From Opitutales bacterium (GTDB taxonomy: Bacteria > Verrucomicrobiota > Verrucomicrobiia > Opitutales > PNEW01), in contig CBDCNV010000002.1 in assembly GCA_965219535.1 (NCBI GenBank), positions 1,350,001 to 1,382,000 on the forward strand: a stretch of DNA of 32,000 nucleotides, in the 5' to 3' direction. This document shows positions 11,844 through 32,000 of this stretch, piece by piece. Positions within the stretch are counted from its first letter, which is position 1, and each line of letters begins with the position of its first letter. The notes beneath the pieces are model-generated. The model worked only from the letters and a program-made list of their open reading frames with translations, was not told where the DNA came from and did not search any database. The translations under genes and the position numbers were made by a program.

Positions 11844-11859
11844 AAATGGAATGGTTAAA

Positions 11860-15087: not shown

Positions 15088-15140
15088 CTACCAATTTACA
15101 ATTGCGGATTAGTCAGAGATAGCCACAAGATTCACAAGAA

Positions 15141-15167
15141 GCGTGCTAGGGACAGCCCGCTCCACCT
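15141..15167. repeat. Solo copy (reverse orientation) of the 27-nt GGTGGAGCGGGCTGTCCCTAGCACGC word
   Basis: The sequence is GCGTGCTAGGGACAGCCCGCTCCACCT, in a convergent intergenic region. Confidence 0.8.
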
Positions 15168-15230
15168 TTGCTAAAAGTCTACCGCATTTCCCCTTTTTGA
15201 CGTTTTGACTCTGACTGCGAGATTTAGCGG

Positions 15231-16364
15231 TCAGATATACCCAGTGGATCCGTCAGGCCGTATGGGTGTGGTGCGCTGCCAGTGGAGATAGTCATCCTTA
15301 CTGATTGCCTCTTCGTCTACTTCCACACCGAGGCCGGGGCGGTCGCGGAGTTCAAGGTAGCCGTCTTTAGGAATGTAAGGATCATCCAGCCAGTGGTTAT
15401 CGACCGGGGGCAGATACTCCAGGATTGTAAAGTTAGGGGTGCTGGCTGCGAAGTGGACGTTGACTGCCGTGGCAAGCGGTCCCATGGGATTGTGTGGGGC
15501 AACCGTGACGAAATGCGCTTCCGCAATGGCGGCGATTCTTTTCATTTCCAACAAGCCGCCGCAGGCGCAAATGTCGGGTTGAATAATGTCCGCGCCCTGC
15601 GCGGCAACGAGGTTGAGGAATTCAAATCGGGTGTAGAGACTTTCACCCGTAGCAAGTGGAACTTTCATTTGAGAGCGCAGTCGTGACCACGCCGGGATAT
15701 GTTCAGGTCGCAGTGGTTCTTCGTAGAAGAGAGGATCGTAGGGGGCCAGGGCATTGGCAAGCTGCAGCGCGAGGATCGGCTCGATAATTTTGGCATGGGG
15801 ATCGAAAGCGAACTCCCAGTTAGCATCCGTGTGTTCGCGAAGTTCTTCAAAGTATTTGGCAGCGGCTTTGCAGACTAACCCCCAGCGGTTGGCATTCATG
15901 TCGATGCGGTAAGGGCTTGTTTTAAACGCGGTGACTCCACATTCCTCGTTCAGTTTTATCGCTTGCTCTGCCGTTTCCTTCCCGCTCGCACCATTAGCAT
16001 GGCAGTAGATCTGGATGCGATCACGTGCCGTGCCGCCCAGAAGCATATATACCGGGAGTCCTGCGGCTTTCCCGCTGATATCCCAGAGGGCGTGGTCGAC
16101 TGCCGACATCGCGGCCAACCCGATCGACCCCGGTGGAAAACGAAACTGCTGATACAGTTTCAACATAATGTATTCAATCCGGCGCGGGTCTTCGCCTTTG
16201 ATCATCTCGAAAATGTAATCGGCAATCGGCTTGATCGCCAGGTCCGGTCCATGATTGTAGGCCTCACCCCATCCGTATAGCCCTTCGTCTGTTTCGACCT
16301 TAATAAGCGCACGCGGACGGTTTGCCCAGCGCGTCATGAAAGTTTTAATCGCCGTTATTTGCAT
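15231..16364 (-). CDS. enolase-superfamily (mandelate racemase/muconate lactonizing family) sugar-acid dehydratase, galactonate-dehydratase-like
   Basis: 377 aa. The N-terminus MQITAIKTF...IKVETDEGLYGWGEA fits the family. Metal-ligand-like positions are FDPH, YEEP and ATGES. Confidence 0.75.
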   Translation of the reverse strand: MQITAIKTFMTRWANRPRALIKVETDEGLYGWGEAYNHGPDLAIKPIADYIFEMIKGEDPRRIEYIMLKLYQQFRFPPGSIGLAAMSAVDHALWDISGKAAGLPVYMLLGGTARDRIQIYCHANGASGKETAEQAIKLNEECGVTAFKTSPYRIDMNANRWGLVCKAAAKYFEELREHTDANWEFAFDPHAKIIEPILALQLANALAPYDPLFYEEPLRPEHIPAWSRLRSQMKVPLATGESLYTRFEFLNLVAAQGADIIQPDICACGGLLEMKRIAAIAEAHFVTVAPHNPMGPLATAVNVHFAASTPNFTILEYLPPVDNHWLDDPYIPKDGYLELRDRPGLGVEVDEEAISKDDYLHWQRTTPIRPDGSTGYI

Positions 16365-16372
16365 GGGTGTTA

Positions 16373-16405
16373 GTCAAAAAGTCAAAAAGTCAAAATGTCA
16401 AAAAG
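16373..16405 (-). promoter_or_regulatory. 4 tandem CTTTTTGAC words ending 8 nt upstream of ATG 16364
   Basis: The plus strand reads GTCAAAAAGTCAAAAAGTCAAAATGTCAAAAAGG. Confidence 0.4.
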
Positions 16406-16532
16406 GAAGAGAGTTCCTATCGATTAAACTCGGGAAAGGCATGTTTAGAGGTTGAGATAAAGTTATTGTATCCGCTAGGATCAATTGACAATCGAAAATC
16501 GACAATTGATATGACCTTTTGACTATCTTCCC

Positions 16533-17759
16533 ATGTACGTTTCTCACCTGTCGTGTCCCAAGTGTAGTGCGACTTATGACAGTGAACAGATAAATCAACT
16601 GTGTAAGTGTGGCGCTCCACTGTTGGTTGACTATGACCTGGATAAGATCAAGGACGTTTTTACGAGGGAAATGCTAAAAGGGCGGGAGCCGACGCTGTGG
16701 CGCTACCGTGAACTGCTGCCGGTTAAAAATGAAGAAAACATCATCTCCCTGGGGGAGGGGATGACACCGCTGCTGCCTTTGAAGCAGTTGGGTCCCAAGG
16801 TGAAGATACCCAAGCTCTACCTGAAGGACGAAGGCATAATTCCGACCGGTTCATTTAAAGCCCGAGGTGCTGCGGTGGGTGTTTCGCGCGCCAGGGAACT
16901 GGGTGTCAAGTCACTGGCGATGCCGACCAATGGTAATGCCGGGGCTGCCTGGGCGGTTTACTGCGCATCAGCCGGTATCGAGGCGGTTATTGTGATGCCC
17001 GAAGATGCGCCCCCCATTCCACGAGGCGAGTGTGCCATTGCCGGCGCTTCACTCTACCTGGTTAGTGGATTGATTTCCGATGCTGGTAAAATCGTGGCCC
17101 AGGCTGTAAAAGAATACGATTGGTTTGATGCTTCAACCCTCAAAGAGCCTTACCGGATCGAGGGAAAAAAAACGATGGGACTGGAGCTGGCCGAGCAGTT
17201 CAACTGGGTTATGCCTGAGGTAATCATTTATCCCACCGGCGGAGGGGTGGGTATCATCGGTATCTACAAAGCCCTGGTGGAACTCAAAACCTTGGGATGG
17301 GTGCAGGGTGATCTGCCTCGCCTGGTGGCGGTCCAAGCTACCGGCTGCGCACCGATCGTCAAAGCCTTTGAGGAAAAACGAGCGGAATCCGAGTTCTGGG
17401 AAGGCGCCAACACCTGCGCTTTTGGTCTCAATGTGCCCAAAGCCCTCGGTGACTTTCTCGTGCTGGACGCTATCTACAAGACCGACGGCTGCGCGCTGGC
17501 CGTGGCTGATGAAGAGCTGTTGGAAGCATCGGCTCTGCTCGCCAGTAGCGAAGGTGCCTTTGTTTGCCCGGAAGGGGCCGCTACCTTGAGCGCCGCGATT
17601 AAGCTGGTTGATAGCGGCTGGATCAAACCCGAAGACCGTGTCGTTTTGCTCAACACCGGATCCGGGATAAAATATCCTGAAACCGTTCAGGTTACCCCGC
17701 CCGTGCTGCAACCTGGTGACCGCTTGCCGAAGGTGAACAGTGATCAGAAGCACAAGTAG
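16533..17759 (+). CDS. threonine synthase-family PLP enzyme with an N-terminal Cys4 zinc-ribbon
   Basis: 408 aa. The zinc-ribbon cysteines are CPKCS...CKCG. The PLP-lysine motif is PTGSFKARGA. One CCTTTTGAC word (16515-16523) ends 9 nt upstream of the ATG. Confidence 0.8.
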   Translation: MYVSHLSCPKCSATYDSEQINQLCKCGAPLLVDYDLDKIKDVFTREMLKGREPTLWRYRELLPVKNEENIISLGEGMTPLLPLKQLGPKVKIPKLYLKDEGIIPTGSFKARGAAVGVSRARELGVKSLAMPTNGNAGAAWAVYCASAGIEAVIVMPEDAPPIPRGECAIAGASLYLVSGLISDAGKIVAQAVKEYDWFDASTLKEPYRIEGKKTMGLELAEQFNWVMPEVIIYPTGGGVGIIGIYKALVELKTLGWVQGDLPRLVAVQATGCAPIVKAFEEKRAESEFWEGANTCAFGLNVPKALGDFLVLDAIYKTDGCALAVADEELLEASALLASSEGAFVCPEGAATLSAAIKLVDSGWIKPEDRVVLLNTGSGIKYPETVQVTPPVLQPGDRLPKVNSDQKHK

Positions 17760-17859
17760 TGTTAAGTTTTAGGTGTTAGGTTTTAAGTGAAGATAGAAAT
17801 AGTTTCAGCATCTTTCGCGGGTTAATCTTCTTTCTCCCAATCCGAAATCCGCAATTGAA

Positions 17860-19083: not shown

Positions 19084-19316
19084 TCAGTAAACAGTGAGTA
19101 ACCTATTGCGGATCTCGGATTTCAGATTGCGGATTGATAAAAAATGCATGATACAAGATGCAGGATGCTGGATAATCATAAATGATCCCGCATCATAGCA
19201 TTCACCCATCTTCGCATATACGCTTTAACACATATCCCTTTTGACTTTTGACTCTACACAATCCGCATTTCCACATCATCGCATACACGCATGTTCGCAT
19301 TAACGCGCGTCAGCGC

Positions 19317-20465
19317 TCATTTATCTTTGTGCTTTGCAATAGCTTTTTCGACTGCTTCGTCGGCGCGGCCGATAAATGTCGGTCGATTATCTTTCGCCCA
19401 GTGCATGCTCTTATTTCGATATTCATTTAGACTGTTGAAGTGCGGCATGACATAGCGGGCAATAAGTTCATAGCTGCGCTTAGTCTGGGCAAAATCGGCC
19501 CAATTATGCGCCATCTGCAGAAAGCAGCCGAAGCCACCGGAATGTTCCCAGAGGCGCTCTAACTGCGCGATGGCATCATCCGGGTCGCCGATTACGCCGA
19601 AGCCCGTTTCATTAAACATGTCCACGAGGGTGTCGAAATCTCCCTCCCAATTGAAGGGCAGCGCTGCCACATTGTTGAAATACCACACGAAATCCTCGAG
19701 ACCGTAGCGCACGTTTTCCTTTGCCTGTTTGCGGCTTTCGGCGATGTGCATGGGTCCGACCAGGCGCCAATCGTCTCGCTTCATCTGCTTACCATTTTCG
19801 GTTGCGCATTGAATGGCTATGTCCCAGTTTTTGGGCAGAGACATGAAACCCGCTTTGCTGGTCGCAGCAAAGGAGAGTAAGCCCAACCCGTGTTTGCCTG
19901 CGATTAGGGCTCCTGTTGGTGAGATGGCCGAGGCCACCGCCATGTGCACCCGGGGATGCGTGAAGGGACGCAGTTGCAACCTCGCATCCTTTAGCTCGAA
20001 CCAGTCCGCTTTATGTGTGACCGTTTCTCCACTTAAGAGAGGAACCAGTACATCCAACGCTTCCTCAAGCATGTCCCTCTGCCGAATGGGGTCGATCCCC
20101 ATCATAAAGGCGTCGGAGGGCAGAGCGCCCGGTCCCATGCCGAACATAAAGCGGCCCCGGGTCTGATGATCCAGCTGCATAACGCGATCGGCGAGTAGCA
20201 GGGGACTGTGATAGGGCACGGAAGACACACCCGTACCCAAACGTATGCGCTTGGTACGGGCGGCGGCGCCAGCCGCGAAAATCTCTGGAGACGCGATGAT
20301 CTCGTAACCGCCAGAATGATGTTCACCCACCCAAACCTCGTCGTAGTTCAGCTCGTCGAGCCATTCCACGAGTTGGAAATCACGCTCAATTGCCAGGTCA
20401 GGATTTTCATTGGCTGCATGAAAAGGAGCCAGGAATATACCAAATCGCATTCTTCGTGTTGTCAT
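19317..20465 (-). CDS. LLM-class (luciferase-like) flavin-dependent monooxygenase, LimB-like
   Basis: 382 aa. MRFGIFLAPFH...VWVGEHHS is a typical LLM N-terminus. The real start could instead be the second Met, at 20450. Confidence 0.75.
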   Translation of the reverse strand: MTTRRMRFGIFLAPFHAANENPDLAIERDFQLVEWLDELNYDEVWVGEHHSGGYEIIASPEIFAAGAAARTKRIRLGTGVSSVPYHSPLLLADRVMQLDHQTRGRFMFGMGPGALPSDAFMMGIDPIRQRDMLEEALDVLVPLLSGETVTHKADWFELKDARLQLRPFTHPRVHMAVASAISPTGALIAGKHGLGLLSFAATSKAGFMSLPKNWDIAIQCATENGKQMKRDDWRLVGPMHIAESRKQAKENVRYGLEDFVWYFNNVAALPFNWEGDFDTLVDMFNETGFGVIGDPDDAIAQLERLWEHSGGFGCFLQMAHNWADFAQTKRSYELIARYVMPHFNSLNEYRNKSMHWAKDNRPTFIGRADEAVEKAIAKHKDK

Positions 20466-20520
20466 GTCTAACCTGTTTGAATCACGACAGAGGTCTCAAT
20501 GCGAGGAAAATGCACAGTGA

Positions 20521-20709
20521 GGGTTCAGGGTTCAGGGTTCAGGGTTCAGGGTTCAGGGTTCAGGGTTCAGGGTTCAGGGTTCAGGGTTCAGGGTTCAGGG
20601 TTCAGGGTTCAGGGTTCAGGGTTCAGGGTTCAGGGTTCAGGGTTCAGGGTTCAGGGTTCAGGGTTCAGGGTTCAGGGTTCAGGGTTCAGGGTTCAGGGTT
20701 CAGGGTTCA
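20521..20709 (+). repeat. Perfect tandem heptamer array (GGGTTCA) x27
   Basis: 189 nt of uninterrupted GGGTTCA. It starts 55 nt upstream of the LLM start codon, in the divergent intergenic region. Confidence 0.97.
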
Positions 20710-20982
20710 GTAAACATTGATGCAATTTTAAATTGTCAATCCATCTGGTCAGATACTCCTATCTTTCTTTCAATCTCCTAACCGTGAACCGTGAACGCAG
20801 AACCTCTGCCCTTCGGATATCGAACATCGAATATCAAACGTCGGATATCAGAAAGATGGATATACGAAAGACAGGTTTCCCTTCGACTGCGCTCAGGGCA
20901 GGCAGGGTACAACCATTCATAAATCTACGGCATCGCTTTTACGCATATACGCATTATCGCGTAAACGCGCGTCAGCGCTATA

Positions 20983-21045: not shown

Positions 21046-22989
21046 ATGCACTCACACGCCGGCAAAATTAATATCCAGTTTCCACAGCCGCTGGTATCCG
21101 GTCAATTGGTGACCGTCAAGTTTCAGTACACCGTCGGTAAGACCGGTATGCGTGAGGGAGGACGTCTGCGAATTGGATTGCCCAGTGTCGCCTGGGCCCA
21201 GCCCGAGGTGCCGCAATACTATTTCTGGTCGGAGTTCGCTCGGGGTAAAAAACGTCGCTACACCCAGTACGACCGGGTCAATACCACGGCGAAATTGAAA
21301 ACTGGAAGTAAGGCAGTGCCGCTGCTGGAAACCGATGCTCGGTTTTTTAAGCCGTGGAGCGGTCAACCGAAATGGCTAACCGAATACGACCGCTTCTGGA
21401 TTACACTCACTCTGGAGGACGATGGACTGAGCGCCAATGACAAAATCACGGTGACTTATGGGGATCCGGATCAATTGCCCTTGACCGCGCGCGTGCAGGG
21501 GTTTCCTGAAGAACGTATTAATTTCCTGGTTTTCGTGGACGCTACCGGAAATGGCCACTTTCGTGAGGTGAATGGATCACCATGGATGTCCGAAGTCCGC
21601 TCGGGACCTGCTAACCGGTTAGATGTGATCAGCCCTTCGATCGTGCGGCCGGGTGAACGACCCGAAGTCCGTGTCGCATACACGGATCAGGTAAAAGGGC
21701 CGACGGTACGACTTCCGCGCGTGGATAACTTGCGCCTCGAAGTGACCGGCATTAAGGGACGGGCCAAAGGAGTCCGCGTTAAACGTAAGACGGATGCAGT
21801 TTGCGTGGCGTTGCCGCAGTTGGCAGCCGCCGGCGCAAGGCGACGTGCGCGCCACGTCGTCGTGCGCGACACGAAGCGTGAGTGGCAGGCCCGCAGTAAC
21901 CCGACGCTGGTCCGAGCCCGTGGCGCACGACTGTTCTGGGGCGATCTGCACGCTCAATCACAATATCACGGATGGAACGAAGTTGACCAGAAGGGTATGA
22001 GCTGCCACCTGCCCGAGGAGTGTTATCGCTATGCTCGGGATCTAGCAGGACTTGATTTTTGTGCCGTGACGGACACCTGGAGTATCACGAAAGACATCTG
22101 GCAGGACACTGTCGAGCAAGCGGACAAGATGTATGAGCCGGGGCGATTCGTGACTTTCCGCGGTTCCGAAGTCGGTGATAATTTTGACGGCCACCGCAAC
22201 CTGCTCTTTCGTGGCGATGCCCCCGAGGCGAATATCAAGACAGTCACGCCCAGCAAACGAGGCGTCGGCATGGTCGAACTGGAAACGGCCCAGATGCAAA
22301 AGCGCTATGCAGGTCGCAACGATGTTTTACTGGTACCTCACCACACGAAAATGTGGGCTTCCTGGGATTGTCATGAACCCCTACTAGAGCGGGTGTTGGA
22401 AATCTACTCGATCTGGGGCAACGGTGAAAAGGCCGGCACGGACCAATGGGAAATCCTCCGCGAAATGACTGGTGGCGCGCAGGAGGCTTGGGCCCGCGGC
22501 TACAGATTGGGGGTGATTGCCGGTACCGATACACATACCGGACTGCCCGGCCGTAGCATTCCTCGCTGCGACCGTGATGACTTTATGCCCTACAAAGGTG
22601 GAATAGCCGGTGTATGGGCCGATGAGTTGACCCGCGAATCCATCTTCAACGCGTTGCATGCCCGCTGCTGTTACGGTACGACCGGCGAGCGAATCATCTT
22701 GGAGACATTTGTCGAAAATAACCCGATGGGCAGCGAAGTGATCTGGCCACGACGCTCATCTCCGCGCGACTTCCGCATCAACATCTGCGCTACCGCGGAC
22801 CTGAGCTCGGTGACCGTGGTTAAAAACAACGACGCTGTTCACACCTTCACTCCACGTGGTGATCACGCAGAACTGGTCTGGCGTGACAAGGCGCCCGCCC
22901 GCAACGGAGACTATTATTATATCCGCGTCAAGCAGCGGGACGGTGAACGGGCATGGTCCAGTCCGATCTGGCTGGATGTGCCAGGATAA
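21046..22989 (+). CDS. PHP-superfamily / DUF3604-like putative metallohydrolase with an N-terminal beta-rich domain
   Basis: The C-terminal half carries LFWGDLHAQSQYH, CAVTDTW, LLVPHHT, AGTDTHTG, GIAGVWADELTRESIFNALHARCCYGTTGERI and YYYIRVKQRDGERAWSSPIWL. The track start at 21034 is a TTG. I prefer ATG 21046. Confidence 0.5.
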   Translation: MHSHAGKINIQFPQPLVSGQLVTVKFQYTVGKTGMREGGRLRIGLPSVAWAQPEVPQYYFWSEFARGKKRRYTQYDRVNTTAKLKTGSKAVPLLETDARFFKPWSGQPKWLTEYDRFWITLTLEDDGLSANDKITVTYGDPDQLPLTARVQGFPEERINFLVFVDATGNGHFREVNGSPWMSEVRSGPANRLDVISPSIVRPGERPEVRVAYTDQVKGPTVRLPRVDNLRLEVTGIKGRAKGVRVKRKTDAVCVALPQLAAAGARRRARHVVVRDTKREWQARSNPTLVRARGARLFWGDLHAQSQYHGWNEVDQKGMSCHLPEECYRYARDLAGLDFCAVTDTWSITKDIWQDTVEQADKMYEPGRFVTFRGSEVGDNFDGHRNLLFRGDAPEANIKTVTPSKRGVGMVELETAQMQKRYAGRNDVLLVPHHTKMWASWDCHEPLLERVLEIYSIWGNGEKAGTDQWEILREMTGGAQEAWARGYRLGVIAGTDTHTGLPGRSIPRCDRDDFMPYKGGIAGVWADELTRESIFNALHARCCYGTTGERIILETFVENNPMGSEVIWPRRSSPRDFRINICATADLSSVTVVKNNDAVHTFTPRGDHAELVWRDKAPARNGDYYYIRVKQRDGERAWSSPIWLDVPG

Positions 22990-22996
22990 GTTAAAA

Positions 22997-23141
22997 GGGT
23001 TCAGGGTAGGGTTCAGGGTTCAGGGTTCAGGGTTCAGGGTTCAGGGTTCAGGGTTCAGGGTTCAGGGTTCAGGGTTCAGGGTTCAGGGTTCAGGGTTCAG
23101 GGTTCAGGGTTCAGGGTTCAGGGTTCAGGGTTCAGGGTTCA
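22997..23141 (+). repeat. Second (GGGTTCA)n array, about 20 units
   Basis: One unit is followed by a degenerate GGGTA, then 19 perfect units (23009-23141). The array begins 8 nt after the stop at 22989. Confidence 0.97.
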
Positions 23142-23354
23142 GTAAACATTGATGCAATTTTAAATTGTCAATCCATCTGGTCAGATACTCCTATCTTTCT
23201 TTCAATCTTCTAACCGTGAACCGTGAACCGTGAACGCAGAACCTCTTCCCTTCGACTGCGCTCAGGGCAGGCAGGGGTACAACCATCCATAAACTACGGC
23301 ATCGCTCTTACGCATACACGCTTTACACCTCATCGCATACACGCTTTCACGCGT

Positions 23355-24212
23355 TCACTCTATATGCAGATCAGTCAACGTCCATGTATTCTGTTCATAA
23401 CTGCCGCCACCTACGACCGTAGCGAAGGCGCCCTCGGCGACACAACCGGGTGAGGAGCTGAAAAATCCATTGATGTCGACGGTGTCCATCATCTTTCCAT
23501 CCATCAGCCATGACAAAGTATTGCCGTCATCGGTGAGCAGCAAACCATAACGATGACCCCACCCGCAGTTGTCCCCTGCCGGATCGAATCGTTGTGCCTG
23601 GGTAACCTGGTGACCCGGGAGTGTAATATTGGGAATCATCTCCGGAAATGTGTAATTCTTAGGGATCTCCTTTTCTATTATCCTATCGTTTAATTCGCGG
23701 TCGAGAAGGGGGATCTTCTCGGTGTCACCTGCGATAATGTTACGACCGAGATAAAAAAAGATTCCGGCCTTGGAGAACCAGTCGTAGTGGATTTGAACAA
23801 CCCGTTCAACCGTATCCTCCGGCGCTATTCTACGCGACACGGGCTCATCGCCAACCATCCCTTGAAATGAACTGATCGCGAGGCCAAATCCCGTCACGAA
23901 GCTCCCCTTCACCGGATCCTCAAAGTCGGAGCTATCACCACGCATGATATACTTGTTGAGGAAGGGTCCCGAGTGTGAGTAATCCTCAAGGGTGAATTCA
24001 AACAGGTTGGTGCCCTTCAGGTCAGGGGTGAATACACGCTGCTTCGTGCACATGTTGCCATAAGCCATGACACCGGGTCCTTCAGGGGCTGTAGTGTCTG
24101 CCCGAATATGCGCCTTGCCATTATCGAAGCTGACATCCTTTTGAATGGGAGCTTCGGCGTATGAATTGCGTTGGACAAATAATTTCCAGGTGCTCGCTTC
24201 GAACGGGGCCAT
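23355..24212 (-). CDS. hypothetical protein (no motif I can name)
   Basis: This is a long ORF with coding-like composition. The track start at 24224 is a TTG inside the CTTTTGAC repeat. I prefer ATG 24212 (MAPFEASTWKLF). Confidence 0.55.
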   Translation of the reverse strand: MAPFEASTWKLFVQRNSYAEAPIQKDVSFDNGKAHIRADTTAPEGPGVMAYGNMCTKQRVFTPDLKGTNLFEFTLEDYSHSGPFLNKYIMRGDSSDFEDPVKGSFVTGFGLAISSFQGMVGDEPVSRRIAPEDTVERVVQIHYDWFSKAGIFFYLGRNIIAGDTEKIPLLDRELNDRIIEKEIPKNYTFPEMIPNITLPGHQVTQAQRFDPAGDNCGWGHRYGLLLTDDGNTLSWLMDGKMMDTVDINGFFSSSPGCVAEGAFATVVGGGSYEQNTWTLTDLHIE

Positions 24213-24219
24213 GTAACTA

Positions 24220-24253
24220 GTCAAAAGGTCAAAAGGTCAAAAAGTCAAAAGGG
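24220..24253 (-). promoter_or_regulatory. 4 tandem CTTTTGAC words ending 7 nt upstream of ATG 24212
   Basis: The plus strand reads GTCAAAAGGTCAAAAGGTCAAAAAGTCAAAAGGG. Confidence 0.4.
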
Positions 24254-24313: not shown

Positions 24314-24389
24314 AGGTGGAACGGGCTGTCCCAGCGCGTTTAAAAAGGTCATGATAAAAGAAGCGCGCTAGGGACAGCCCGCTCCACCT
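24314..24389. repeat. Inverted repeat of the GGTGGARCGGGCTGTCCC(T)AGCGCG word with a ~24-nt AT-rich loop
   Basis: Arms are at 24314-24338 and 24363-24389, differing by one mismatch and one 1-nt indel. The element lies in the divergent region between the hypothetical gene (-) and the YtoQ gene (+). Confidence 0.85.
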
Positions 24390-24505
24390 CAATACTAAAA
24401 CCTAAAACTACTACTACATACTTAACCATCGCGAAGGCATATTCGCACTAAACATCACCTTCCATTTTGACTTTCTTCTTCACTTCACTTTAAAAAGAAA
24501 TCGAT

Positions 24506-24952
24506 ATGCAACTTACGATCTATCTCTCAGGTGAAATTCATTCCGATTGGCGGGAACAAATCGTGCAGGGTATAGAGGCTCACGATTTGTCGGTCGAGGT
24601 GCTATCCCCGGTGACGGAACACGCGGCCAGTGATGATGTGGGTGTGGCCATTTTGGGCGATGAAGAGAAGAATTTCTGGAAGGACCACAAGGCCGCAAAG
24701 ATCAACCGTCTGCGCATCGGAACCAGCATTGAACAGGCAGATATCGTCGTCGTAAAATTCGGAGACCAGTACAAACAGTGGAATGCCGCTTTCGAAGCCG
24801 GTTATGCGGTGGCGATGGGTAAATCGCTTATCACTCTGCATGACCCCGAACTCACGCATCCGCTTAAAGAAGTGGATGCCTCAGCGATGGCCGTCACTGA
24901 AACCCCAGCTCAGGTGGTCGAAATTCTGAAGTATGTCACCACTCAGAAATGA
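24506..24952 (+). CDS. ytoQ: YtoQ family protein (nucleoside 2-deoxyribosyltransferase-like fold)
   Basis: 148 aa. It matches the YtoQ pattern as I remember it along its length: IYLSGEIHSDWRE, FGDQYKQWNAAFEAGYA, HPLKEV and VTET. Confidence 0.8.
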   Translation: MQLTIYLSGEIHSDWREQIVQGIEAHDLSVEVLSPVTEHAASDDVGVAILGDEEKNFWKDHKAAKINRLRIGTSIEQADIVVVKFGDQYKQWNAAFEAGYAVAMGKSLITLHDPELTHPLKEVDASAMAVTETPAQVVEILKYVTTQK

Positions 24953-25040
24953 AATCTGAAGAGTCAAAAAGTCAAAAGGATAGAGACACCAGTGAACAAG
25001 GGAAAATGTTCCGCTTATACTCTTCCTCGCGTACTCGCAT

Positions 25041-25850
25041 TTACGCTTTAGTTTCCCCGTAGAAGCCGAGCTCGCTTAAGCGATCGATCCAGCGTTGGCG
25101 CGTGGCACTGCCTTGTCGATTTTTAACCCATTCAGGATGGTACCATAACTGACCGGTTCGATCATGGTTTTCAGGGATCTGTGCTACGCCCACCGCATGT
25201 TTTCGTGCCCATGCTTCCTCCGCGGGTGTCTTCGGGTCAATCAGATAGTAGAGGGTACACAAACGTCGGCCAGTAGATCCGCCCACACTGGAATGCCAAG
25301 TCCTTGGATCGAACACGACTACATCGCCGGGCTCGGCCGGGCACGCTTGAGCCGGTACGCTGGGGATCGGTATTTTCGGTTCCTCTCCGGGTTGCGGAAA
25401 TGGAAACAACATCGCTTGTAATGCGTCGTGATACGGCTTCCGATGTGATCCGGGAATGAGCCGCAAGGCCCCGCTGTCTGTGCCCACCGATTCGAGCATC
25501 CAGGCGATCTTGACCCCGCAGGGATGATCGGAGTCCGAGTCGGGGTGCCACAGCGTATCGCCCACCCGCCGATTGACATCCGAAATCAGCCCAAGGACAT
25601 CGCCACCCAGCTGCTCGGCTATGTTGAGCATCCGCGGGTCTTCCAGGAGCGAAGTCATGAAGGGCGTATCCGGCCCCATCGTAGAAGTTACCTGCTTTAT
25701 TGATCCGTCGAAAGGTTTGTGGGCATAATCCGCATCCAGAACCCGTTCCAGCTCGTCAGCACAGCGCGTAATCTCGTCGGGATTCAAGACTTGTCGGATT
25801 ATTACAAAGCCAAACATCGTGTAATGCGTAACTTGAGCGTCTGAGAGCAT
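25041..25850 (-). CDS. phytanoyl-CoA dioxygenase (PhyH) family Fe(II)/2-oxoglutarate oxygenase
   Basis: The motifs LWHPDSD (HxD), IPGSHRK and WHSSVGGSTGRR are present. The track start at 25862 is a TTG inside the repeat. I prefer ATG 25850 (MLSDAQV). CTTTTGAC x2 (25858-25878) ends 7 nt upstream. Confidence 0.8.
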   Translation of the reverse strand: MLSDAQVTHYTMFGFVIIRQVLNPDEITRCADELERVLDADYAHKPFDGSIKQVTSTMGPDTPFMTSLLEDPRMLNIAEQLGGDVLGLISDVNRRVGDTLWHPDSDSDHPCGVKIAWMLESVGTDSGALRLIPGSHRKPYHDALQAMLFPFPQPGEEPKIPIPSVPAQACPAEPGDVVVFDPRTWHSSVGGSTGRRLCTLYYLIDPKTPAEEAWARKHAVGVAQIPENHDRTGQLWYHPEWVKNRQGSATRQRWIDRLSELGFYGETKA

Positions 25851-26005
25851 GCTTTTAGTCAAAAAGTCAAAAGGTCACCCGCCTTCACTCTATCGAGTTA
25901 TGGCGTGGCATGAAAAGTCAAAAGGGAAGAAACTTTATGCGCCTTCGCGCGTGTAAGTATTAGGTGTTAAGTGTTAGGTTTTAGGTAATTGACTTAAAAC
26001 GGTAC

Positions 26006-27369
26006 AACCAGGACATGGTTTACAGATTTAGATCAAGACATGGTTTACACTTTGTGAGGGATGCTGAACGGTAATCGGGTTATATAGTTAAGTTAATGTT
26101 ATGCGGTTTTAGAGGTTTGGCTGGCATTGTTGGGGCCGCAAGCGGCCCCAATGAAAGCAGCCGTTGAAAGGTCAATCTGACCGATTCTGAGAGTGGCAAA
26201 GTAAACATCGAAGTGTACCGTGTCTAGTGGTTTTAGTCCAACGCTCCAACCGGCGAGGGCGGTGGAGATAGGAATCTGGAAGCCATCGAGTTTGATAGAC
26301 CCGCTTTTTGAGACCCGGCGAGTCATCAAATCATAGCTGATATCGGCAGGAGTGCCACCGTAAGGATGAGAGCTGTGCTGATAGATTTCAGAGGGCGTGC
26401 TCATGGCAAGAGCCGCATGGGGGCGTTCTTCATTGAAGGTCTTGCGCCACAGATCGAAGGCCACCTGTTGGGTGCGAAGATCGTCCTGGGCATGTTTTTG
26501 CAACTCCTCTTTGATATCGCGATGGAGACGCTCATGGGCACCGTTATCCTGGGGTTTACCCGGACGTCCACGCTCGAGATTGATCCCTAAGGCCAGCCAC
26601 CAGGCCGCCAGTTTGCTCAGGCCCAGGACCGCATTGGCACTGGCAAAGGGACTGCCGTTGTCGCTGCGGATGCAAGCGGGAAGTCCATAGCGTTCAAAGA
26701 GTTTTGTGAAGCATTCACGCACCGCTTCGCTACGGGCTGAACTGAGCACCCGCACCTCTAATACATAGCGGCTCCATTCATCCCGTACCGTCAAAGGTTC
26801 ACAACGGTTGCCATCAACGGTGTGCCACCACCCTTTGAAGTCTACGCTCCACACTTCGTTACAGCCACTGGCCTTGACGCTGCGGTAAAGGCGTCCGCTT
26901 TTTTGAGCGCTTCTGCGCCGACGCTTTTGCACCAGTCCCGCACGTTCCAAGACCCGTTTCACGCTCGAGTCTGAGGGGGCCTTCCCGTAACGCCTCTGGT
27001 AAAGCTCGCGGATCTTGTAGGGGCCCCACGTCGGGTGATGATGCTTGAGTTTGATCAGCGTACATACTACTGATTCGGATAGTTCCTGAACACTTCCATG
27101 CGGTCGGCGTGAGCGCTCGTGCAACCCCTCCATCCCTTCGCTCAGGAAGCGCTTCTTCCATTTATACCCTGTCGGTCGGCTGATCCCGTAGTCTTCACAC
27201 AGCTCGTTCATCTTTACTCCCGGTTGCATCGATTCCAGGGCGAATTGGTATCTTTGGTCCATTTTATTTGTTTCCTTCCATGACATCATACCCCTTACTT
27301 AGCATCCTTCTTTCTTTGGCAATCTGTAAAGGATGTCCTGAACCTTTTGTGTAAAGAATGTCTTGAACC
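26006..27369 (-). mobile_element. IS481-family-like insertion sequence, copy A (~1.36 kb; ends approximate)
   Basis: A single transposase ORF is flanked at each end by two tandem ~17-nt motifs with consensus CARGACATNNTTTACAS. Confidence 0.7.
26099..27289 (-). CDS. DDE (rve) transposase with an N-terminal HTH, IS481-like
   Basis: 396 aa. The HTH region is CEDYGISRPTGYKWKKRF. The catalytic region is WSVDFKGW, IRSDNGSPF and NGAHERLHRDIKEE. Confidence 0.85.
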   Translation of the reverse strand: MMSWKETNKMDQRYQFALESMQPGVKMNELCEDYGISRPTGYKWKKRFLSEGMEGLHERSRRPHGSVQELSESVVCTLIKLKHHHPTWGPYKIRELYQRRYGKAPSDSSVKRVLERAGLVQKRRRRSAQKSGRLYRSVKASGCNEVWSVDFKGWWHTVDGNRCEPLTVRDEWSRYVLEVRVLSSARSEAVRECFTKLFERYGLPACIRSDNGSPFASANAVLGLSKLAAWWLALGINLERGRPGKPQDNGAHERLHRDIKEELQKHAQDDLRTQQVAFDLWRKTFNEERPHAALAMSTPSEIYQHSSHPYGGTPADISYDLMTRRVSKSGSIKLDGFQIPISTALAGWSVGLKPLDTVHFDVYFATLRIGQIDLSTAAFIGAACGPNNASQTSKTA

Positions 27370-27488
27370 TATACCGGAGTTTACTGATTTCTTATCGGCC
27401 ACTCCCTCTTTCCGTATAAATTTTTTCTGTGCCTCTTGGTAGATGTCGTCCCGAAAACTCGGGACTCGGTAGTGGCAATCTCTTTTCT

Positions 27489-28274
27489 TTATTTCCCCGC
27501 TTTCGACTTTCGACCTTTGACCTTGGACAAATCTTCCCTACTGTTTACTGAATTCATCTCAGCCGGCGTGGCGAGATCGCGCGCTTTGCGTTTCCAACTA
27601 TATTTATCTTCCCCGGTAAGCAGTGCACGATGTTGGTCCGATAGGGTTTTTACAAAGTCGGGATCGGGATCGTAACCTTTCCAGGTCTGAAACATCGTCG
27701 GCGCGTACCCACCGAGAATGAGTAGCCGGTCCTGGTCGGATTTGATATTGCCTGCCGAATGGATGAGAGATTCGAAAAAAAGCAGGGTGGAGCCGGCAGG
27801 TGCCTCCACCTGTTGAATGAAGGACGGATCCTCCAGGGCCGCATTAATGATCACCTCGTCCGGAACATCGATTGGTATTTTGTGGGTACCTGGAATGACC
27901 GTGGTACCGCCATCGTCCGGGCCGAGATCGGTGAGATTAGTTAGGGCTTTGACAAAGGAGTAATGGTAGAGCCCATTGTCATTGTGATTGTAAGCTGAAT
28001 TTATAGTTCGGTGGAATCCCAAGGGGCGATTTTTATCTTCTACCGGACGTCGTATGTGAGCGTCAGACTGTTCAAGTCTTGCCCGGCCGCCGATAATTTC
28101 TTCGGCCATGCCTAAAATGAATGGGTGCGAAATATAGTCGAAGAAACAGGGCGCCAGATGTGGCAAGTTGTCGACGCGAAAGAACTCCTCGGTAGTGCTG
28201 ATGTTCCAGCCCTGATACCGGCCCAACGTGGGCACATTCGTTAGTGCATGGCGAAAGTCGTCTTCAATTACCAT
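27489..28274 (-). CDS. PhyH-family dioxygenase paralog, left copy (261 aa)
   Basis: The 310-aa track ORF runs across the palindrome centre. I prefer ATG 28274 (MVIEDDFRHALTNVPTLGRYQGWNISTTEEFF). IPGTHK and LIHSAG...DR motifs are present. The last 239 aa are identical to the right copy. Confidence 0.75.
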   Translation of the reverse strand: MVIEDDFRHALTNVPTLGRYQGWNISTTEEFFRVDNLPHLAPCFFDYISHPFILGMAEEIIGGRARLEQSDAHIRRPVEDKNRPLGFHRTINSAYNHNDNGLYHYSFVKALTNLTDLGPDDGGTTVIPGTHKIPIDVPDEVIINAALEDPSFIQQVEAPAGSTLLFFESLIHSAGNIKSDQDRLLILGGYAPTMFQTWKGYDPDPDFVKTLSDQHRALLTGEDKYSWKRKARDLATPAEMNSVNSREDLSKVKGRKSKAGK

Positions 28275-28347
28275 AAAGCGTGTCTTTGAGCGAGAGCGGT
28301 TTCGCTCTCGGTCAAAGACACGCTTTATGGTAATTGATGACGACTTT
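28254..28347. promoter_or_regulatory. 94-bp palindromic core (45-nt arms, 2 mismatches, GTTT loop) containing both PhyH start codons and the whole 52-bp divergent intergenic region
   Basis: The sequence is AAAGTCGTCTTCAATTACCATAAAGCGTGTCTTTGAGCGAGAGCG-GTTT-CGCTCTCGGTCAAAGACACGCTTTATGGTAATTGATGACGACTTT. Confidence 0.6.
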
Positions 28348-29100
28348 AGCCGCACTAACGAATTGCCCAGCCCGTATAGCTGGAACATCAGCACTACCGA
28401 GGAGTTCTTTCGCGTCGACAACTTGCCACATCTGGCGCCCTGTTTCTTCGACTATATTTCGCACCCATTCATTTTAGGCATGGCCGAAGAAATTATCGGC
28501 GGCCGGGCAAGACTTGAACAGTCTGACGCTCACATACGACGTCCGGTAGAAGATAAAAATCGCCCCTTGGGATTCCACCGAACTATAAATTCAGCTTACA
28601 ATCACAATGACAATGGGCTCTACCATTACTCCTTTGTCAAAGCCCTAACTAATCTCACCGATCTCGGCCCGGACGATGGCGGTACCACGGTCATTCCAGG
28701 TACCCACAAAATACCAATCGATGTTCCGGACGAGGTGATCATTAATGCGGCCCTGGAGGATCCGTCCTTCATTCAACAGGTGGAGGCACCTGCCGGCTCC
28801 ACCCTGCTTTTTTTCGAATCTCTCATCCATTCGGCAGGCAATATCAAATCCGACCAGGACCGGCTACTCATTCTCGGTGGGTACGCGCCGACGATGTTTC
28901 AGACCTGGAAAGGTTACGATCCCGATCCCGACTTTGTAAAAACCCTATCGGACCAACATCGTGCACTGCTTACCGGGGAAGATAAATATAGTTGGAAACG
29001 CAAAGCGCGCGATCTCGCCACGCCGGCTGAGATGAATTCAGTAAACAGTAGGGAAGATTTGTCCAAGGTCAAAGGTCGAAAGTCGAAAGCGGGGAAATAA
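28327..29100 (+). CDS. PhyH-family dioxygenase paralog, right copy (257 aa)
   Basis: I prefer ATG 28327 (MVIDDDFSRTNELPSPYSWNISTTEEFF). The remainder is identical to the left copy. Confidence 0.75.
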   Translation: MVIDDDFSRTNELPSPYSWNISTTEEFFRVDNLPHLAPCFFDYISHPFILGMAEEIIGGRARLEQSDAHIRRPVEDKNRPLGFHRTINSAYNHNDNGLYHYSFVKALTNLTDLGPDDGGTTVIPGTHKIPIDVPDEVIINAALEDPSFIQQVEAPAGSTLLFFESLIHSAGNIKSDQDRLLILGGYAPTMFQTWKGYDPDPDFVKTLSDQHRALLTGEDKYSWKRKARDLATPAEMNSVNSREDLSKVKGRKSKAGK

Positions 29101-29219
29101 AGAAAAGAGATTGCCACTACCGAGTCCCGAGTTTTCGGGACGACATCTACCAAGAGGCACAGAAAAAATTTATACGGAAAGAGGGAGTGGCCGATAAGAA
29201 ATCAGTAAACTCCGGTATA

Positions 29220-30583
29220 GGTTCAAGACATTCTTTACACAAAAGGTTCAGGACATCCTTTACAGATTGCCAAAGAAAGAAGGATGCTAAGTAAGGGGTA
29301 TGATGTCATGGAAGGAAACAAATAAAATGGACCAAAGATACCAATTCGCCCTGGAATCGATGCAACCGGGAGTAAAGATGAACGAGCTGTGTGAAGACTA
29401 CGGGATCAGCCGACCGACAGGGTATAAATGGAAGAAGCGCTTCCTGAGCGAAGGGATGGAGGGGTTGCACGAGCGCTCACGCCGACCGCATGGAAGTGTT
29501 CAGGAACTATCCGAATCAGTAGTATGTACGCTGATCAAACTCAAGCATCATCACCCGACGTGGGGCCCCTACAAGATCCGCGAGCTTTACCAGAGGCGTT
29601 ACGGGAAGGCCCCCTCAGACTCGAGCGTGAAACGGGTCTTGGAACGTGCGGGACTGGTGCAAAAGCGTCGGCGCAGAAGCGCTCAAAAAAGCGGACGCCT
29701 TTACCGCAGCGTCAAGGCCAGTGGCTGTAACGAAGTGTGGAGCGTAGACTTCAAAGGGTGGTGGCACACCGTTGATGGCAACCGTTGTGAACCTTTGACG
29801 GTACGGGATGAATGGAGCCGCTATGTATTAGAGGTGCGGGTGCTCAGTTCAGCCCGTAGCGAAGCGGTGCGTGAATGCTTCACAAAACTCTTTGAACGCT
29901 ATGGACTTCCCGCTTGCATCCGCAGCGACAACGGCAGTCCCTTTGCCAGTGCCAATGCGGTCCTGGGCCTGAGCAAACTGGCGGCCTGGTGGCTGGCCTT
30001 AGGGATCAATCTCGAGCGTGGACGTCCGGGTAAACCCCAGGATAACGGTGCCCATGAGCGTCTCCATCGCGATATCAAAGAGGAGTTGCAAAAACATGCC
30101 CAGGACGATCTTCGCACCCAACAGGTGGCCTTCGATCTGTGGCGCAAGACCTTCAATGAAGAACGCCCCCATGCGGCTCTTGCCATGAGCACGCCCTCTG
30201 AAATCTATCAGCACAGCTCTCATCCTTACGGTGGCACTCCTGCCGATATCAGCTATGATTTGATGACTCGCCGGGTCTCAAAAAGCGGGTCTATCAAACT
30301 CGATGGCTTCCAGATTCCTATCTCCACCGCCCTCGCCGGTTGGAGCGTTGGACTAAAACCACTAGACACGGTACACTTCGATGTTTACTTTGCCACTCTC
30401 AGAATCGGTCAGATTGACCTTTCAACGGCTGCTTTCATTGGGGCCGCTTGCGGCCCCAACAATGCCAGCCAAACCTCTAAAACCGCATAACATTAACTTA
30501 ACTATATAACCCGATTACCGTTCAGCATCCCTCACAAAGTGTAAACCATGTCTTGATCTAAATCTGTAAACCATGTCCTGGTT
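29220..30583 (+). mobile_element. IS481-family-like insertion sequence, copy B (mirror of copy A)
   Basis: Motifs lie at 29224-29240 and 29249-29265 on the 5' side. Their reverse complements lie at 30539-30555 and 30564-30580 on the 3' side. Confidence 0.7.
29300..30490 (+). CDS. DDE (rve) transposase, IS481-like, identical to 26099..27289
   Basis: The 396-aa translation in the ORF track is identical to that of copy A. Confidence 0.85.
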   Translation: MMSWKETNKMDQRYQFALESMQPGVKMNELCEDYGISRPTGYKWKKRFLSEGMEGLHERSRRPHGSVQELSESVVCTLIKLKHHHPTWGPYKIRELYQRRYGKAPSDSSVKRVLERAGLVQKRRRRSAQKSGRLYRSVKASGCNEVWSVDFKGWWHTVDGNRCEPLTVRDEWSRYVLEVRVLSSARSEAVRECFTKLFERYGLPACIRSDNGSPFASANAVLGLSKLAAWWLALGINLERGRPGKPQDNGAHERLHRDIKEELQKHAQDDLRTQQVAFDLWRKTFNEERPHAALAMSTPSEIYQHSSHPYGGTPADISYDLMTRRVSKSGSIKLDGFQIPISTALAGWSVGLKPLDTVHFDVYFATLRIGQIDLSTAAFIGAACGPNNASQTSKTA

Positions 30584-30696
30584 GTACCGTTTTAAGTCAA
30601 TTACCTAAAACCTAACACTTAACACCTAAAACGCGCGAAAGCGCTTCCCTCCTTCGACTTTCGACCTTCGACTTTTGACACGCGCTGATGCGCGCT

Positions 30697-31986
30697 TCAG
30701 CGCGCGCCCCCTTCCGTCCGAATCCTAGGATCGAGCCACATGAGGAGAAGATCGCTGACGAGGGTACCGAGGACACCGACGAGGCTGAGGACCATGAGCA
30801 TCGATCCGGCCAGGTACATATCCTGATTCATTAGAGCATCAAGCATCAGGGGGCCGACGGTGGGCAGACTCAGGACCATGGCGACGATTGCACCGCCGGA
30901 AATAAGTTGGGGAAACAGGGTGCCAATCGCTGAGATGAAGGGATTGAGTGCGATGCGCACAGGATATTTTAAAAGTACATGAATCGGTCGCACTCCTTTT
31001 GCCATCGCGGTTACGACATAGGGTTTTTTTAATTCATCGAGCAGGTTGCCGCGCATCACACGGATCATGCTCGCGGTGCCAGTGACCCCGAGAACAACGA
31101 CTGGGAGCCAGATGTGTTGCATGAGGTCTGCCGCTTTGCCCCAACTCCATTCGGGACGCCCGGCGTATTCGGGTGAATATAAGCCCGTCATGCTGATGCC
31201 GAAATAGAGATTACTCCAATACATAAGCAAGAGCGCGAGGAGAAAACTGGGGACGCACATCCCGATAAATCCGAGGAAGGTGAAGAAGTAATCACCAATC
31301 GAGTATTGTCGCACGGCAGAGTAGACACCAATCGGCAGGGCGATCGCCCAGGTAAAGAGTATGGACCCCAACGAAATTAAAAAAGTAAGCAGGATGCGGT
31401 CACCGACAACTTCGTTTACCGATGTTCGGCTCTCCATGGAAAACCCCAGGTGACCCTGGAGCAGACCACGTTCTACAGACTTAAAGGAGAGAAACCAGGG
31501 AAGACCAAGCCAATTGACGTACTGCCTGAAAGTGGATACATCGGTGGGATAGATTTCCCGCAATTGCTCGGCTTCAATTTTCGCTTGATCGTCACCAGTA
31601 TACTCTGCCTGTAAAATTTTTAAATCTATATAATTTGATGGAGGTAACTGAATGATGGTAAAAGAAATGATCGAGATAAGAAGTAAAGTAGGCACCATAA
31701 TAATGAGACGTCTGCCTATATAGGGGTGTTTAAATCCCATGAGAATCAGTCCCACCGCGATGATACCTAATATAATGTGAAGGACAACCCGACCGAAAGA
31801 GTCATTCCCTTTTGTTTCAAAGGTGACTGCATCAAGTGTGTGGGACGGGGGTGTAATCTCGGTCATTTCCCTTTTTATTTGTGCGATAACCCCCGGTGAA
31901 TCGTCCGGTTCCTCGAAATAGTAAGCTTCAAGTCCACCACTGGCAATGCTCTCATAGGCACCCCCGTAAAGCGCGTTACGGGGCAC
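30697..31986 (-). CDS. ABC transporter permease (DppB/OppB-type, binding-protein-dependent inner-membrane component)
   Basis: Multiple TM segments are present, along with the block YIGRRLIIMVPTLLLISIISFTIIQLPP and the EAA-loop region LDELKKPYVVTAMAKGV. The start is uncertain: the frame is still open at the window edge, and an internal start near MGFKHPYIGRR is also plausible. Confidence 0.7.
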   Translation of the reverse strand: MPRNALYGGAYESIASGGLEAYYFEEPDDSPGVIAQIKREMTEITPPSHTLDAVTFETKGNDSFGRVVLHIILGIIAVGLILMGFKHPYIGRRLIIMVPTLLLISIISFTIIQLPPSNYIDLKILQAEYTGDDQAKIEAEQLREIYPTDVSTFRQYVNWLGLPWFLSFKSVERGLLQGHLGFSMESRTSVNEVVGDRILLTFLISLGSILFTWAIALPIGVYSAVRQYSIGDYFFTFLGFIGMCVPSFLLALLLMYWSNLYFGISMTGLYSPEYAGRPEWSWGKAADLMQHIWLPVVVLGVTGTASMIRVMRGNLLDELKKPYVVTAMAKGVRPIHVLLKYPVRIALNPFISAIGTLFPQLISGGAIVAMVLSLPTVGPLMLDALMNQDMYLAGSMLMVLSLVGVLGTLVSDLLLMWLDPRIRTEGGAR

Positions 31987-32000
31987 GCTCTTAAATCCCT

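Follow-up and report, generated by a model that had tools for sequence, protein, structure and literature searches.

How does a bacterial chromosome come to carry a gene and its neighbouring insertion sequence (IS) mirrored onto themselves, base for base? The question is raised by positions 25960–30629 of a 32,000-nt stretch of Opitutales bacterium DNA (assembly GCA_965219535.1, contig CBDCNV010000002.1, positions 1,350,001 to 1,382,000; hereafter the window), in which two IS481-family copies and two open reading frames (ORFs) of the PhyH dioxygenase family form a near-perfect palindrome of 4.67 kb. In the reading that we consider probable, the palindrome is real and very recent: an inverted duplication seeded by a pair of IS copies and made by replicative template switching, similar to microhomology-mediated break-induced replication (MMBIR) or fork stalling and template switching (FoSTeS). 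It is a repair or replication scar, without function.

The palindrome and its precursor allele

In an ungapped mirror comparison, in which each position p was paired with position 56589 − p, we obtained a 2251-nt perfect reverse-complement run with arms at 25960–28210 and 28379–30629, exactly where the original prediction from the bare sequence had placed them. A repeat finder gave slightly longer arms (25957–28210 and 28379–30632), owing to one mismatch tolerated at 25959. The centre between the arms (28211–28378, 168 nt) is imperfect and contains an inner imperfect inverted repeat (28250–28298/28303–28351), which is 94% complementary around the 4-nt loop GTTT. The two 396-aa transposases (ORFs 26099–27289 on the minus strand and 29300–30490 on the plus strand) are identical, and the two PhyH ORFs (261 and 257 aa) are identical across their final 239 aa, both as predicted. 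The predicted layout of each arm was also confirmed, and runs from the outside to the centre as a 41-nt word array, a 1375-bp IS, a 113-nt spacer and a PhyH ORF. The features are given below with the comparisons on which they are based, in which L063 is a sister assembly, L001 a more distant relative and OY829953.1 a complete Opitutales (Verrucomicrobiota) metagenome-assembled genome (MAG).

25960–26000, minus strand: outermost 41 nt of the left arm, copied from the flank of the right-hand IS (host GTTAGGTT-type word array), identical to 30589–30629
26001–27375, minus strand: left IS481-family IS, 1375 bp (ends from the OY829953.1 copies; Pfam, NCBIfam)
27376–27488, minus strand: mirrored 113-nt PhyH–IS spacer, inside the perfect arm
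27489–28274, minus strand: left PhyH remnant, 261-aa ORF, deposited as P0121 (Pfam, homologue alignment, blastn)
28204–28210, no strand: junction J1, 7-nt microhomology TTCCAGC (window 28190–28240 read against L063 13630–13810)
28211–28237, plus strand: 27-nt templated patch from PhyH codons 10–18 (match to L063 13643–13669)
28236–28312, minus strand: inner section of the left copy, PhyH codons 58 to 33 in reverse (comparison with L063)
28291–28310, no strand: symmetry centre, the native quasi-palindrome of PhyH codons 34–40, perfected (L063 precursor)
28313–29100, plus strand: right PhyH remnant, in ancestral position from codon 41 on; ORF 28327–29100, 257 aa, P0001 (blastn, L063)
29101–29213, plus strand: original PhyH–IS spacer (collinear with L001 10904–11013)
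29214–30588, plus strand: right IS481-family copy, the donor arm; transposase ORF 29300–30490 (transposase and copy comparisons)
30589–30629, plus strand: original 41-nt outer flank, host word array, followed by the ancestral intergenic region (L001, L063)

The flanks on both sides of the palindrome are unique and, together with the non-identical centre, speak against a trivial fold-back artefact, as had been argued from the sequence at the outset. An inverted duplication of the fold-back type, rather than a plain composite transposon, was likewise supported. The two PhyH genes of the original prediction are not intact, however. Each lacks the first ~43 residues (MSxKPIPFPALTPAQRLHIDIHGYVII.NLL....TLKDTLYG) that are present in all close homologues of 279–323 aa, the Pfam PhyH match of the window ORFs begins only at profile position 44, and both ORFs begin at the IEDDF motif, which follows the residues found only in the homologues. 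Both ORFs are remnants truncated at the 5′ end.

The ancestral context was recognized in five more distant relatives (L001, L002, L059, L060 and L061; PhyH 87–95% identical). Their common gene order is Ig_7, Ig_7, AlkZ-like, NHL, FG-GAP, one full-length PhyH and a convergent gene for a solute-binding protein (SBP) and permease; in the window, this SBP/permease gene lies beyond the right arm (30697–31986, minus strand). No IS was found at the PhyH–permease locus in any of the five. By blastn, window 28204–29210 is collinear with L001 10023–11013, window 30624–32000 aligns to L001 11034–12401 at 93.8%, and the right PhyH is collinear with L001, L059, L061 and L063, as is the original spacer on the right with the IS-free relatives. 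The left arm gave an inverted match instead (window 27379–28312 to L001 11013–10094), and the left flank of the window, with a 273-aa PhyH paralogue, YtoQ and others, is not syntenic. Because the right arm and its flank are collinear with IS-free, single-PhyH relatives, the right arm is the original and the left arm its reverse copy.

Two sister assemblies, L062 (ERZ25067264) and L063 (ERZ25072670), were found by exact look-up of the neighbouring YtoQ protein. They differ from the window by 0–1 substitutions per unique block of 2.6–5 kb (≤0.04%), and no difference from the window was seen over the 835 nt of the PhyH 3′ part plus spacer or the 1371 nt of the right flank; all three represent the same strain. 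In L063, the order is left flank, inverted IS (11496–12870), 698 nt, full-length PhyH (ATG at 13615, end at 14516), spacer, IS (14630–16029) and permease. A single-PhyH arrangement, for which related genomes had been proposed as the place to look, was thus found in L063 and in the five more distant relatives. The two IS copies of L063 are inverted, 100% complementary over 1367 nt and located at the same two sites as in the window, and the 698 nt consist of remnants of the ancestral NHL/FG-GAP intergenic region and of the PhyH upstream region. Since both IS copies flank a single full-length PhyH in L063, the inverted IS pair predates the mirroring and was its substrate, not its product. The view that the structure reflects an inverted duplication and not two independent insertions holds for the duplication, and needs correction for the IS pair, which was already in place. 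Judged from this precursor, a reverse copy of the right block (the PhyH 3′ part, the spacer, the IS and 41 nt) has taken the place in the window of the former left IS together with the 698 nt and codons 1–32 of PhyH.

Junctions, templated patch and copying between IS elements

The junctions were read base by base against L063 as the precursor. The outer edge of the left arm (J0) falls within a match of 13 nt, ACTTAACACCTAA (25960–25972, minus strand), and the left outer 41 nt of the window are of the right-flank type (GTTTTAAGTCAATTACCTAAAACCTAACACTTAACACCTAA). At this position L062 and L063 have a different left flank, TAAGTTTTAGCCTAATTACC(T)TAAAACTTAACACCTAA, and rejoin the window sequence after ...TTAACACCTAA|TACTT, from where the left flank is common to all. 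At the inner end of the arm, the heptamer of J1 is common to the reverse complement of PhyH codons 62–64 (gctggaa) and to codons 8–10 (tttccagcc). The adjoining patch matches its source in L063 at 24 of 27 positions, a score reached by none of 300 shuffles. It stands in plus orientation within the minus-oriented left copy and replaces 18 nt (codons 59–62), and its source lies ~130 nt away (upstream) in the precursor gene. Neither the region of PhyH codons 10–18 elsewhere in the window nor a better match to the patch in any compared locus was found.

The patch ends at J2, a 2-nt microhomology (AT, 28236–28237), beyond which the inner left copy carries an untemplated +AT at 28248–28249 and a T→AG change at 28293–28294 (on the minus strand, ACCGAGAGCGAAACCGCT[CT]CGCTCAAAGACACG compared with ACCGAGAGCGAAACCGCT[A]CGCTCAAAGACACG in L063). 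L063 contains here the native quasi-palindrome CGAGAGCG-AAAC-CGCTACG, which the T→AG change (ACG→CTCG) perfects to CGAGAGCG-AAAC-CGCTCTCG, listed for window 28291–28310 as CGAGAGCG-GTTT-CGCTCTCG. At the turn-around, J3 (28312/28313), codon 33 in reverse complement (GGT) is joined to codon 41 (CAAAG), the microhomology being ~1 nt. What appears as the symmetry centre is thus the loop of a hairpin already present in the gene. The left PhyH remnant is composed of ancestral codons 33–58, the foreign patch and then codon 63 to the end, while the right copy carries private substitutions (a→T at 28338 and c→A at 28348). In addition, a +A at 28332/28333 (ggtAatt), present in both PhyH copies and absent from L063, brings an ATG into frame with the downstream ORF.

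The private changes (~9) all lie in 28211–28348, within ~140 nt of the junctions, compared with 0 changes in the 4502 nt of the arms (2 × 2251 nt) and no more than 1 per 2.6 kb when the assemblies are compared. A diverged copy with indels was considered as the origin of the non-identical centre and dropped, 28211–28237 being PhyH codons 10–18 in the opposite orientation; the centre is a mosaic made up of junctions left by template switches. Its central 200 nt, when folded as single-stranded DNA, gave −95.3 kcal/mol (z = −21), corresponding to a near-continuous hairpin with a 4-nt loop, the irregularities of which are mismatches, a 2-nt bulge and a 27/18-nt asymmetric bubble 60–90 nt from the hairpin tip.

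The weaker similarity described outside both arms is real, but it does not extend the duplication. The host genome is rich in short intergenic word arrays of the GTCAAAAG, GTTAGGTT, CGCATATA and GATATCC types, and the module just outside the arms (GGGAAG..CGCGCGT followed by a GTTAGGTT array) is a generic one, found also at 8669–8715 and 17759–17788; the weak similarity arises because such modules recur at intergenic sites. An older, larger duplication was considered as its source and dropped, as the modules recur elsewhere and the left flank matches that of the sister assemblies.

Both IS copies of L063 carry the nonsense change C359A, with which the transposase stops after 90 aa, and this change is absent from both IS copies of the window and from the L062 copy. 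Gene conversion between the two IS copies is evident in L063. The outer junction of the left IS, moreover, differs among the three otherwise identical assemblies (GTTT..., GTAT... and CGCTCCACC...). Because C359A is found in both L063 copies and the three outer junctions differ, ectopic copying between IS elements, overshooting the IS ends and resolving in host arrays, seems to be frequent in this strain, and the palindrome can best be understood as such copying that overshot to an extreme degree. Gene conversion, which had been suggested to keep the arms identical, is supported for the IS pair by C359A. For the PhyH part recency suffices: the arms are identical because the event was very recent, the sisters standing at 0–1 substitutions per block.

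Probable template switching and rival explanations

The marks of template switching are read directly from the precursor allele and its product. The four junctions carry microhomologies (J1, 7 nt; J2, 2 nt; J3, ~1 nt; J0, 13 nt in the host array), the insertion is templated nearby (the 27-nt patch, ~130 nt away), inverted repeats pre-existed at one junction (the IS pair in L063), and point mutations and indels are clustered at the junctions. Inverted-repeat-seeded events with iterative template switches and microhomology junctions have been published (PMC11293582, PMC4352052, PMC2621351), break-repair synthesis is strongly mutagenic and prone to re-alignments (10.1101/2023.08.09.552703), and a perfected hairpin is the classical outcome of template switching at quasi-palindromes in Escherichia coli (PMC7202029). 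Replicative intramolecular transposition was ruled out, since non-IS DNA is duplicated on both sides of the IS. We infer one replicative event, a fork collapse or a break followed by break-induced-type synthesis; the strand and direction of copying, and the presence of the +A of both PhyH copies before the event, belong to the same inference.

The starting point would be a free 3′ end, left where a fork collapsed or the DNA broke at the left IS or close to it. The growing strand would leave the left template and pair with the identical, opposite right IS and the adjacent host array (the 13-nt match), and the right block would then be copied backwards for ~2.2 kb, from the 41-nt flank through the IS and the spacer into PhyH, of which the 3′ five-sixths would be included. 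Copying would become unstable close to PhyH codon 63, with three hops inside a 200-nt neighbourhood: at the first, the 7-nt microhomology would lead to codons 10–18 of PhyH, of which 27 nt would be copied; at the second, the 2-nt microhomology would lead back, and codons 58 down to 33 would be copied; and at the third, at the quasi-palindrome in codons 34–40, the strand would move to the forward template, with synthesis resuming at codon 41. The net effect would be the exchange of ~2.3 kb, made up of the former IS, upstream DNA and the first 32 codons of PhyH, for a 2.25-kb mirror image, giving the 4.67-kb palindrome and two dead PhyH fragments. Switching on one nascent strand throughout would account for the private errors in both PhyH copies. 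The mildly positive GC skew within the window is too weak to decide the switching strand or direction.

Several points weigh against this reconstruction. The +A common to both PhyH copies yet absent from L063 calls for an extra assumption, and would be either a frameshift that preceded the event or the result of self-templated synthesis from the nascent strand. Both P0001 and P0121 lie on a single deposited contig (2,312,241 nt), without read-level support or a second independent assembly, and the two junction sequences, the J1–patch–J2 junction and the central junction, gave 0 hits in JGI metagenome contigs. In E. coli, a centre that folds this strongly around a 4-nt loop would be cut by SbcCD, with lethal effect (PMC4245961). 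Parsimony favours one event with four switches, but this is not proven.

The single contig, and the lack of the junctions in the one other collection searched (JGI metagenome contigs), are also what would be expected of an artefact, in which chimeric long reads produced in vitro by polymerase template switching, in amplification or library preparation, were accepted by the assembler at a locus that is really L063-like. Strand-displacing polymerases produce inverted chimeras with microhomology, and in-vitro switching of a polymerase is able to mimic the microhomology junctions. The sister contigs were assembled at low depth, judged by their names (ctg..._5x and ctg..._8x), and a palindrome of this kind is expected to be unstable in vivo (PMC4245961). 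We nevertheless consider an artefact unlikely: the flanks are unique and the arms end after 2251 nt, so that the contig is not simply folded back, and the four junctions, the templated patch and the exact 2.3-kb replacement would all be needed in the consensus-defining reads. Furthermore, the outer junction lies in an array where L062 and L063 also differ from each other, indicating a site that is variable in vivo, and L063 gives independent evidence of conversion between these two IS copies.

A two-step origin in vivo, in which IS–IS recombination flips the PhyH segment and a break, or a template switch between sister chromosomes with opposite isomers, then joins the flipped to the unflipped copy inside PhyH, appears quite improbable. 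Between perfect inverted IS copies of 1.4 kb, the spacer should be flipped easily, and the flipped isomer would give the left IS followed by the spacer and PhyH, the exact order of the window, leaving only the central junctions as illegitimate; yet a crossover inside the IS leaves the outer flank unchanged, and the left outer 41 nt of the window are of the right-flank type, so that a third event would be needed. The flipped isomer was not seen in L062 or L063. The combination of arms that are 100% identical with a centre that is not, and the evidence for conversion between the two IS copies, might also suggest an old palindrome homogenised by continual gene conversion, as are Y-chromosome palindromes and chloroplast inverted repeats, with only the centre diverging. 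We regard this as excluded for practical purposes, because the same strain still has the intact locus: L063, which differs by ≤0.04%, has an intact PhyH and no mirror, and its interpretation as a derived deletion is opposed by collinearity with the five distant relatives. The centre, moreover, is a mosaic of junctions and patch, not of accumulated substitutions, and the similarity outside the arms is that of generic host repeats. An old palindrome would be shared by lineages, with arms diverged between them, whereas concerted change was seen only in the IS pair, at one site.

Template switching seeded by the IS pair, the reading that we prefer, can be compared with several known systems. Human DUP-TRP/INV-DUP events (duplication–triplication/inversion–duplication) of the MMBIR/FoSTeS type are alike in having one junction at existing identical inverted repeats and others with 1–7 nt of microhomology, as well as a short insertion templated nearby, point errors at the junctions and an inverted duplicated product. 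Unlike these, the present case is bacterial and small (2.25 kb), the repeats are IS copies, and the copied DNA lies between the repeats; unlike a duplication–triplication, it is a copy-number-neutral replacement (2.3 kb lost, 2.25 kb gained). Chloroplast inverted repeats reportedly expand via break repair against the other repeat copy (Goulding et al., in 1996). This expansion is alike in that synthesis primed in one copy passes the repeat boundary into single-copy DNA and is illegitimately resolved, and differs in that it concerns an organelle genome and usually enters a single-copy region without destroying a spacer gene in this way. Tandem inversion duplications, said to have been described in Salmonella and E. 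coli by Kugelberg et al. in 2010, share the snap-back at short quasi-palindromes that leads to head-to-head junctions; they have three copies, the middle one inverted, and two inverted junctions, whereas the window has only two copies and one palindromic junction. The L063 precursor, with inverted IS copies flanking PhyH, resembles a composite transposon, but no target-site duplication lies outside its IS copies, the PhyH–permease side is ancestral chromosomal context, and the interior in the window consists of mirrored gene fragments. Quasi-palindrome mutagenesis in E. coli (PMC7202029) is alike in the turn-around at a native imperfect hairpin that is now perfected; such events change few bases, while the switch in the window is one step in a kilobase-scale inverted copy.

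The stability of the palindrome is a question of its own. In E. coli, a 460-bp perfect palindrome is lethal in the presence of SbcCD, both sister chromosomes being cut, whereas the same palindrome with a 20-bp interruption is tolerated, owing to recombinational repair (PMC4245961). Inverted duplications arise from palindromes in sbcCD recA mutants (PMC3315005). These duplications are alike in being hairpin-centred inverted duplications with the same stability problem (PMC3315005, PMC4245961), but they grow outward from an engineered palindrome via a hairpin-capped end, whereas in the window growth would have been inward from the IS pair, with both flanks kept. Despite its mismatches and bubble, the centre of the window appears close to the class that is dangerous in E. 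coli. The palindrome allele may be transient, or the organism may process hairpins unlike E. coli. More doubtful is the proposal that the palindrome is stably inherited in a wild, uncultivated Opitutales lineage that lacks or tolerates SbcCD-type cleavage, as a natural record of four-switch, break-induced-type synthesis. If true, it would, together with the co-sampled precursor, provide a nucleotide-resolution record of an event driven by frequent ectopic IS conversion and by IS targeting of host intergenic arrays.

A complex rearrangement can seldom be compared before and after, except in the laboratory and in human genetics. In this case, L063 as the precursor and the window as the product are from the same strain, and the junctions, microhomologies, patch and point errors can be read directly. 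The pair illustrates how opposite IS copies can turn the intervening DNA into a palindrome and kill a gene, how ectopic IS conversion can overshoot the IS ends, and how the apparently diverged centre of a palindrome can be a junction mosaic, not a sign of age. It also raises the practical question of how far long, near-perfect palindromes in long-read MAGs are tolerated in vivo. This kind of mechanism is already known, and the window is an instructive example of it, not a new principle; the unusual part is the co-sampled precursor allele.

The IS, host word arrays and neighbouring genes

The transposase is a single DDE (rve-type) enzyme with an N-terminal helix-turn-helix/leucine-zipper region, as is characteristic of the IS481 family (Pfam: rve, rve_3, HTH_32, HTH_23 and LZ_Tnp_IS481). 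Its top NCBIfam model is transpos_IS481, at 222.4 bits compared with a cut-off of 224, followed by IS3 at 124.6 bits. A genome scan gave at least nine copies (93% identity) in OY829953.1, sharing the ends GGTATAGG...GTTGTACC as terminal inverted repeats, and alignment with nine of these copies fixed the ends of the window IS as GGTATAGGTTCAAGAC...CCTGGTTGTACC. Each IS end carries two subterminal CA(A/G)GACAT..TTTACA repeats; in the right IS copy of L063, the subterminal repeat unit TGTAAACCATGTCTTGATCTAAATC is duplicated in tandem (25 nt). Direct repeats of 3–4 bp (CTAT, ATAG and GCT) flank three of the nine OY829953.1 copies and neither window copy, and mirrored flanks like those of the window were looked for around the OY829953.1 copies and not found. 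Exact-protein look-ups of the transposase and of P0001 found no record.

The loci of the OY829953.1 copies (L005–L011, L013 and L025, positions ~4290–4340) were compared for flanking arrays. In all nine, and in the window copies (25957–26000 and 30589–30632), the distance between the transposase-3′ end and a CTTAAAACCTAACACTTAACAC-type host array is 4–13 nt and the orientation does not vary, and the identical flank CTATTTTACTTAAAACC is common to three of the OY829953.1 copies. This suggests that the IS may prefer host word arrays as target sites, comparable to IS elements that target repetitive extragenic palindromic (REP) sequences.

Such words were found in tandem, 7–8 nt each, in almost every intergenic region of the window (GTCAAAAG/GTCGAAAG, GTTAGGTT/GTTAAGTG, CGCATATA/CGCATTAT and GATATCC/GATATTC), often in the fixed module [GTCAAAAG]n–GGGAAG–CGCnnnGCGCG–[GTTAGGTT]n, and the same words are present in the intergenic regions of the relatives. 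The arrays lie at 2814–3883, 8686–8715, 10905–10933, 11857–11885, 16370–16414, 17759–17788, 19185–19317, 20922–20982, 23322–23358, 24217–24253, 24952–25052, 25855–25883 and 30647–30680. Long tandem arrays (reported period 14, effectively 7 nt) stand on both sides of the DUF3604 gene, at 20506–20831 and 22980–23263; one 228-nt stretch is 98% identical between the two sides, and the array lengths vary among the window, L062 and L063.

An array also forms the end of PhyH: the final 11 codons (KVKGRKSKAGK; 27496–27529/29060–29093) are encoded by a GTCGAAAG-type intergenic array. PhyH stops ~20 codons sooner in several relatives (279 aa), so that the ORF seems to have been extended into the word array. 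The PhyH–IS spacer holds a terminator-like hairpin, GTCCCGA-GTTT-TCGGGAC, within a 78-nt repeated intergenic element (27420–27497/29092–29169) that also occurs, at ~82% identity, downstream of the AlkZ-like gene of the relatives (L001 4944–5021).

Further rearrangements were observed at the locus. Of the FG-GAP gene found before PhyH in the relatives (~2.7 kb), little more than a deletion scar is left in this strain (L063 12871–13568 compared with L001 6755–10026): ~70 nt of its 5′ end are retained, which points to ongoing gene loss. L062 represents a third structural allele of the strain, in which the left IS is followed by an Ig_7 gene, not PhyH (region 11502–15244), and a 470-nt IS fragment (5577–6046), missing from the window, separates its luciferase-like gene from its DUF3604 gene. 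The locus is a hot spot for rearrangements linked to IS elements.

The neighbouring genes form a cluster in which several dioxygenase paralogues of the PhyH family are interspersed with ~1090-aa proteins (window 25041–25862, 27489–29100 and 30697–31986; L001/L059 10001–20900), the latter being of an unusual architecture in which a solute-binding SBP_bac_5 domain is fused to the ABC permease domain BPD_transp_1. Finally, a conserved element of ~33–39 nt, AAGAAGCGYGCTAGGGACAGCCCGCTCCACCT, was found at 11926–11964 (minus strand), 15136–15168 and 24358–24396 of the window and at 930–967 and 3521–3558 of L001; it is intergenic both in the window and in distant relatives, at 92–100% identity.

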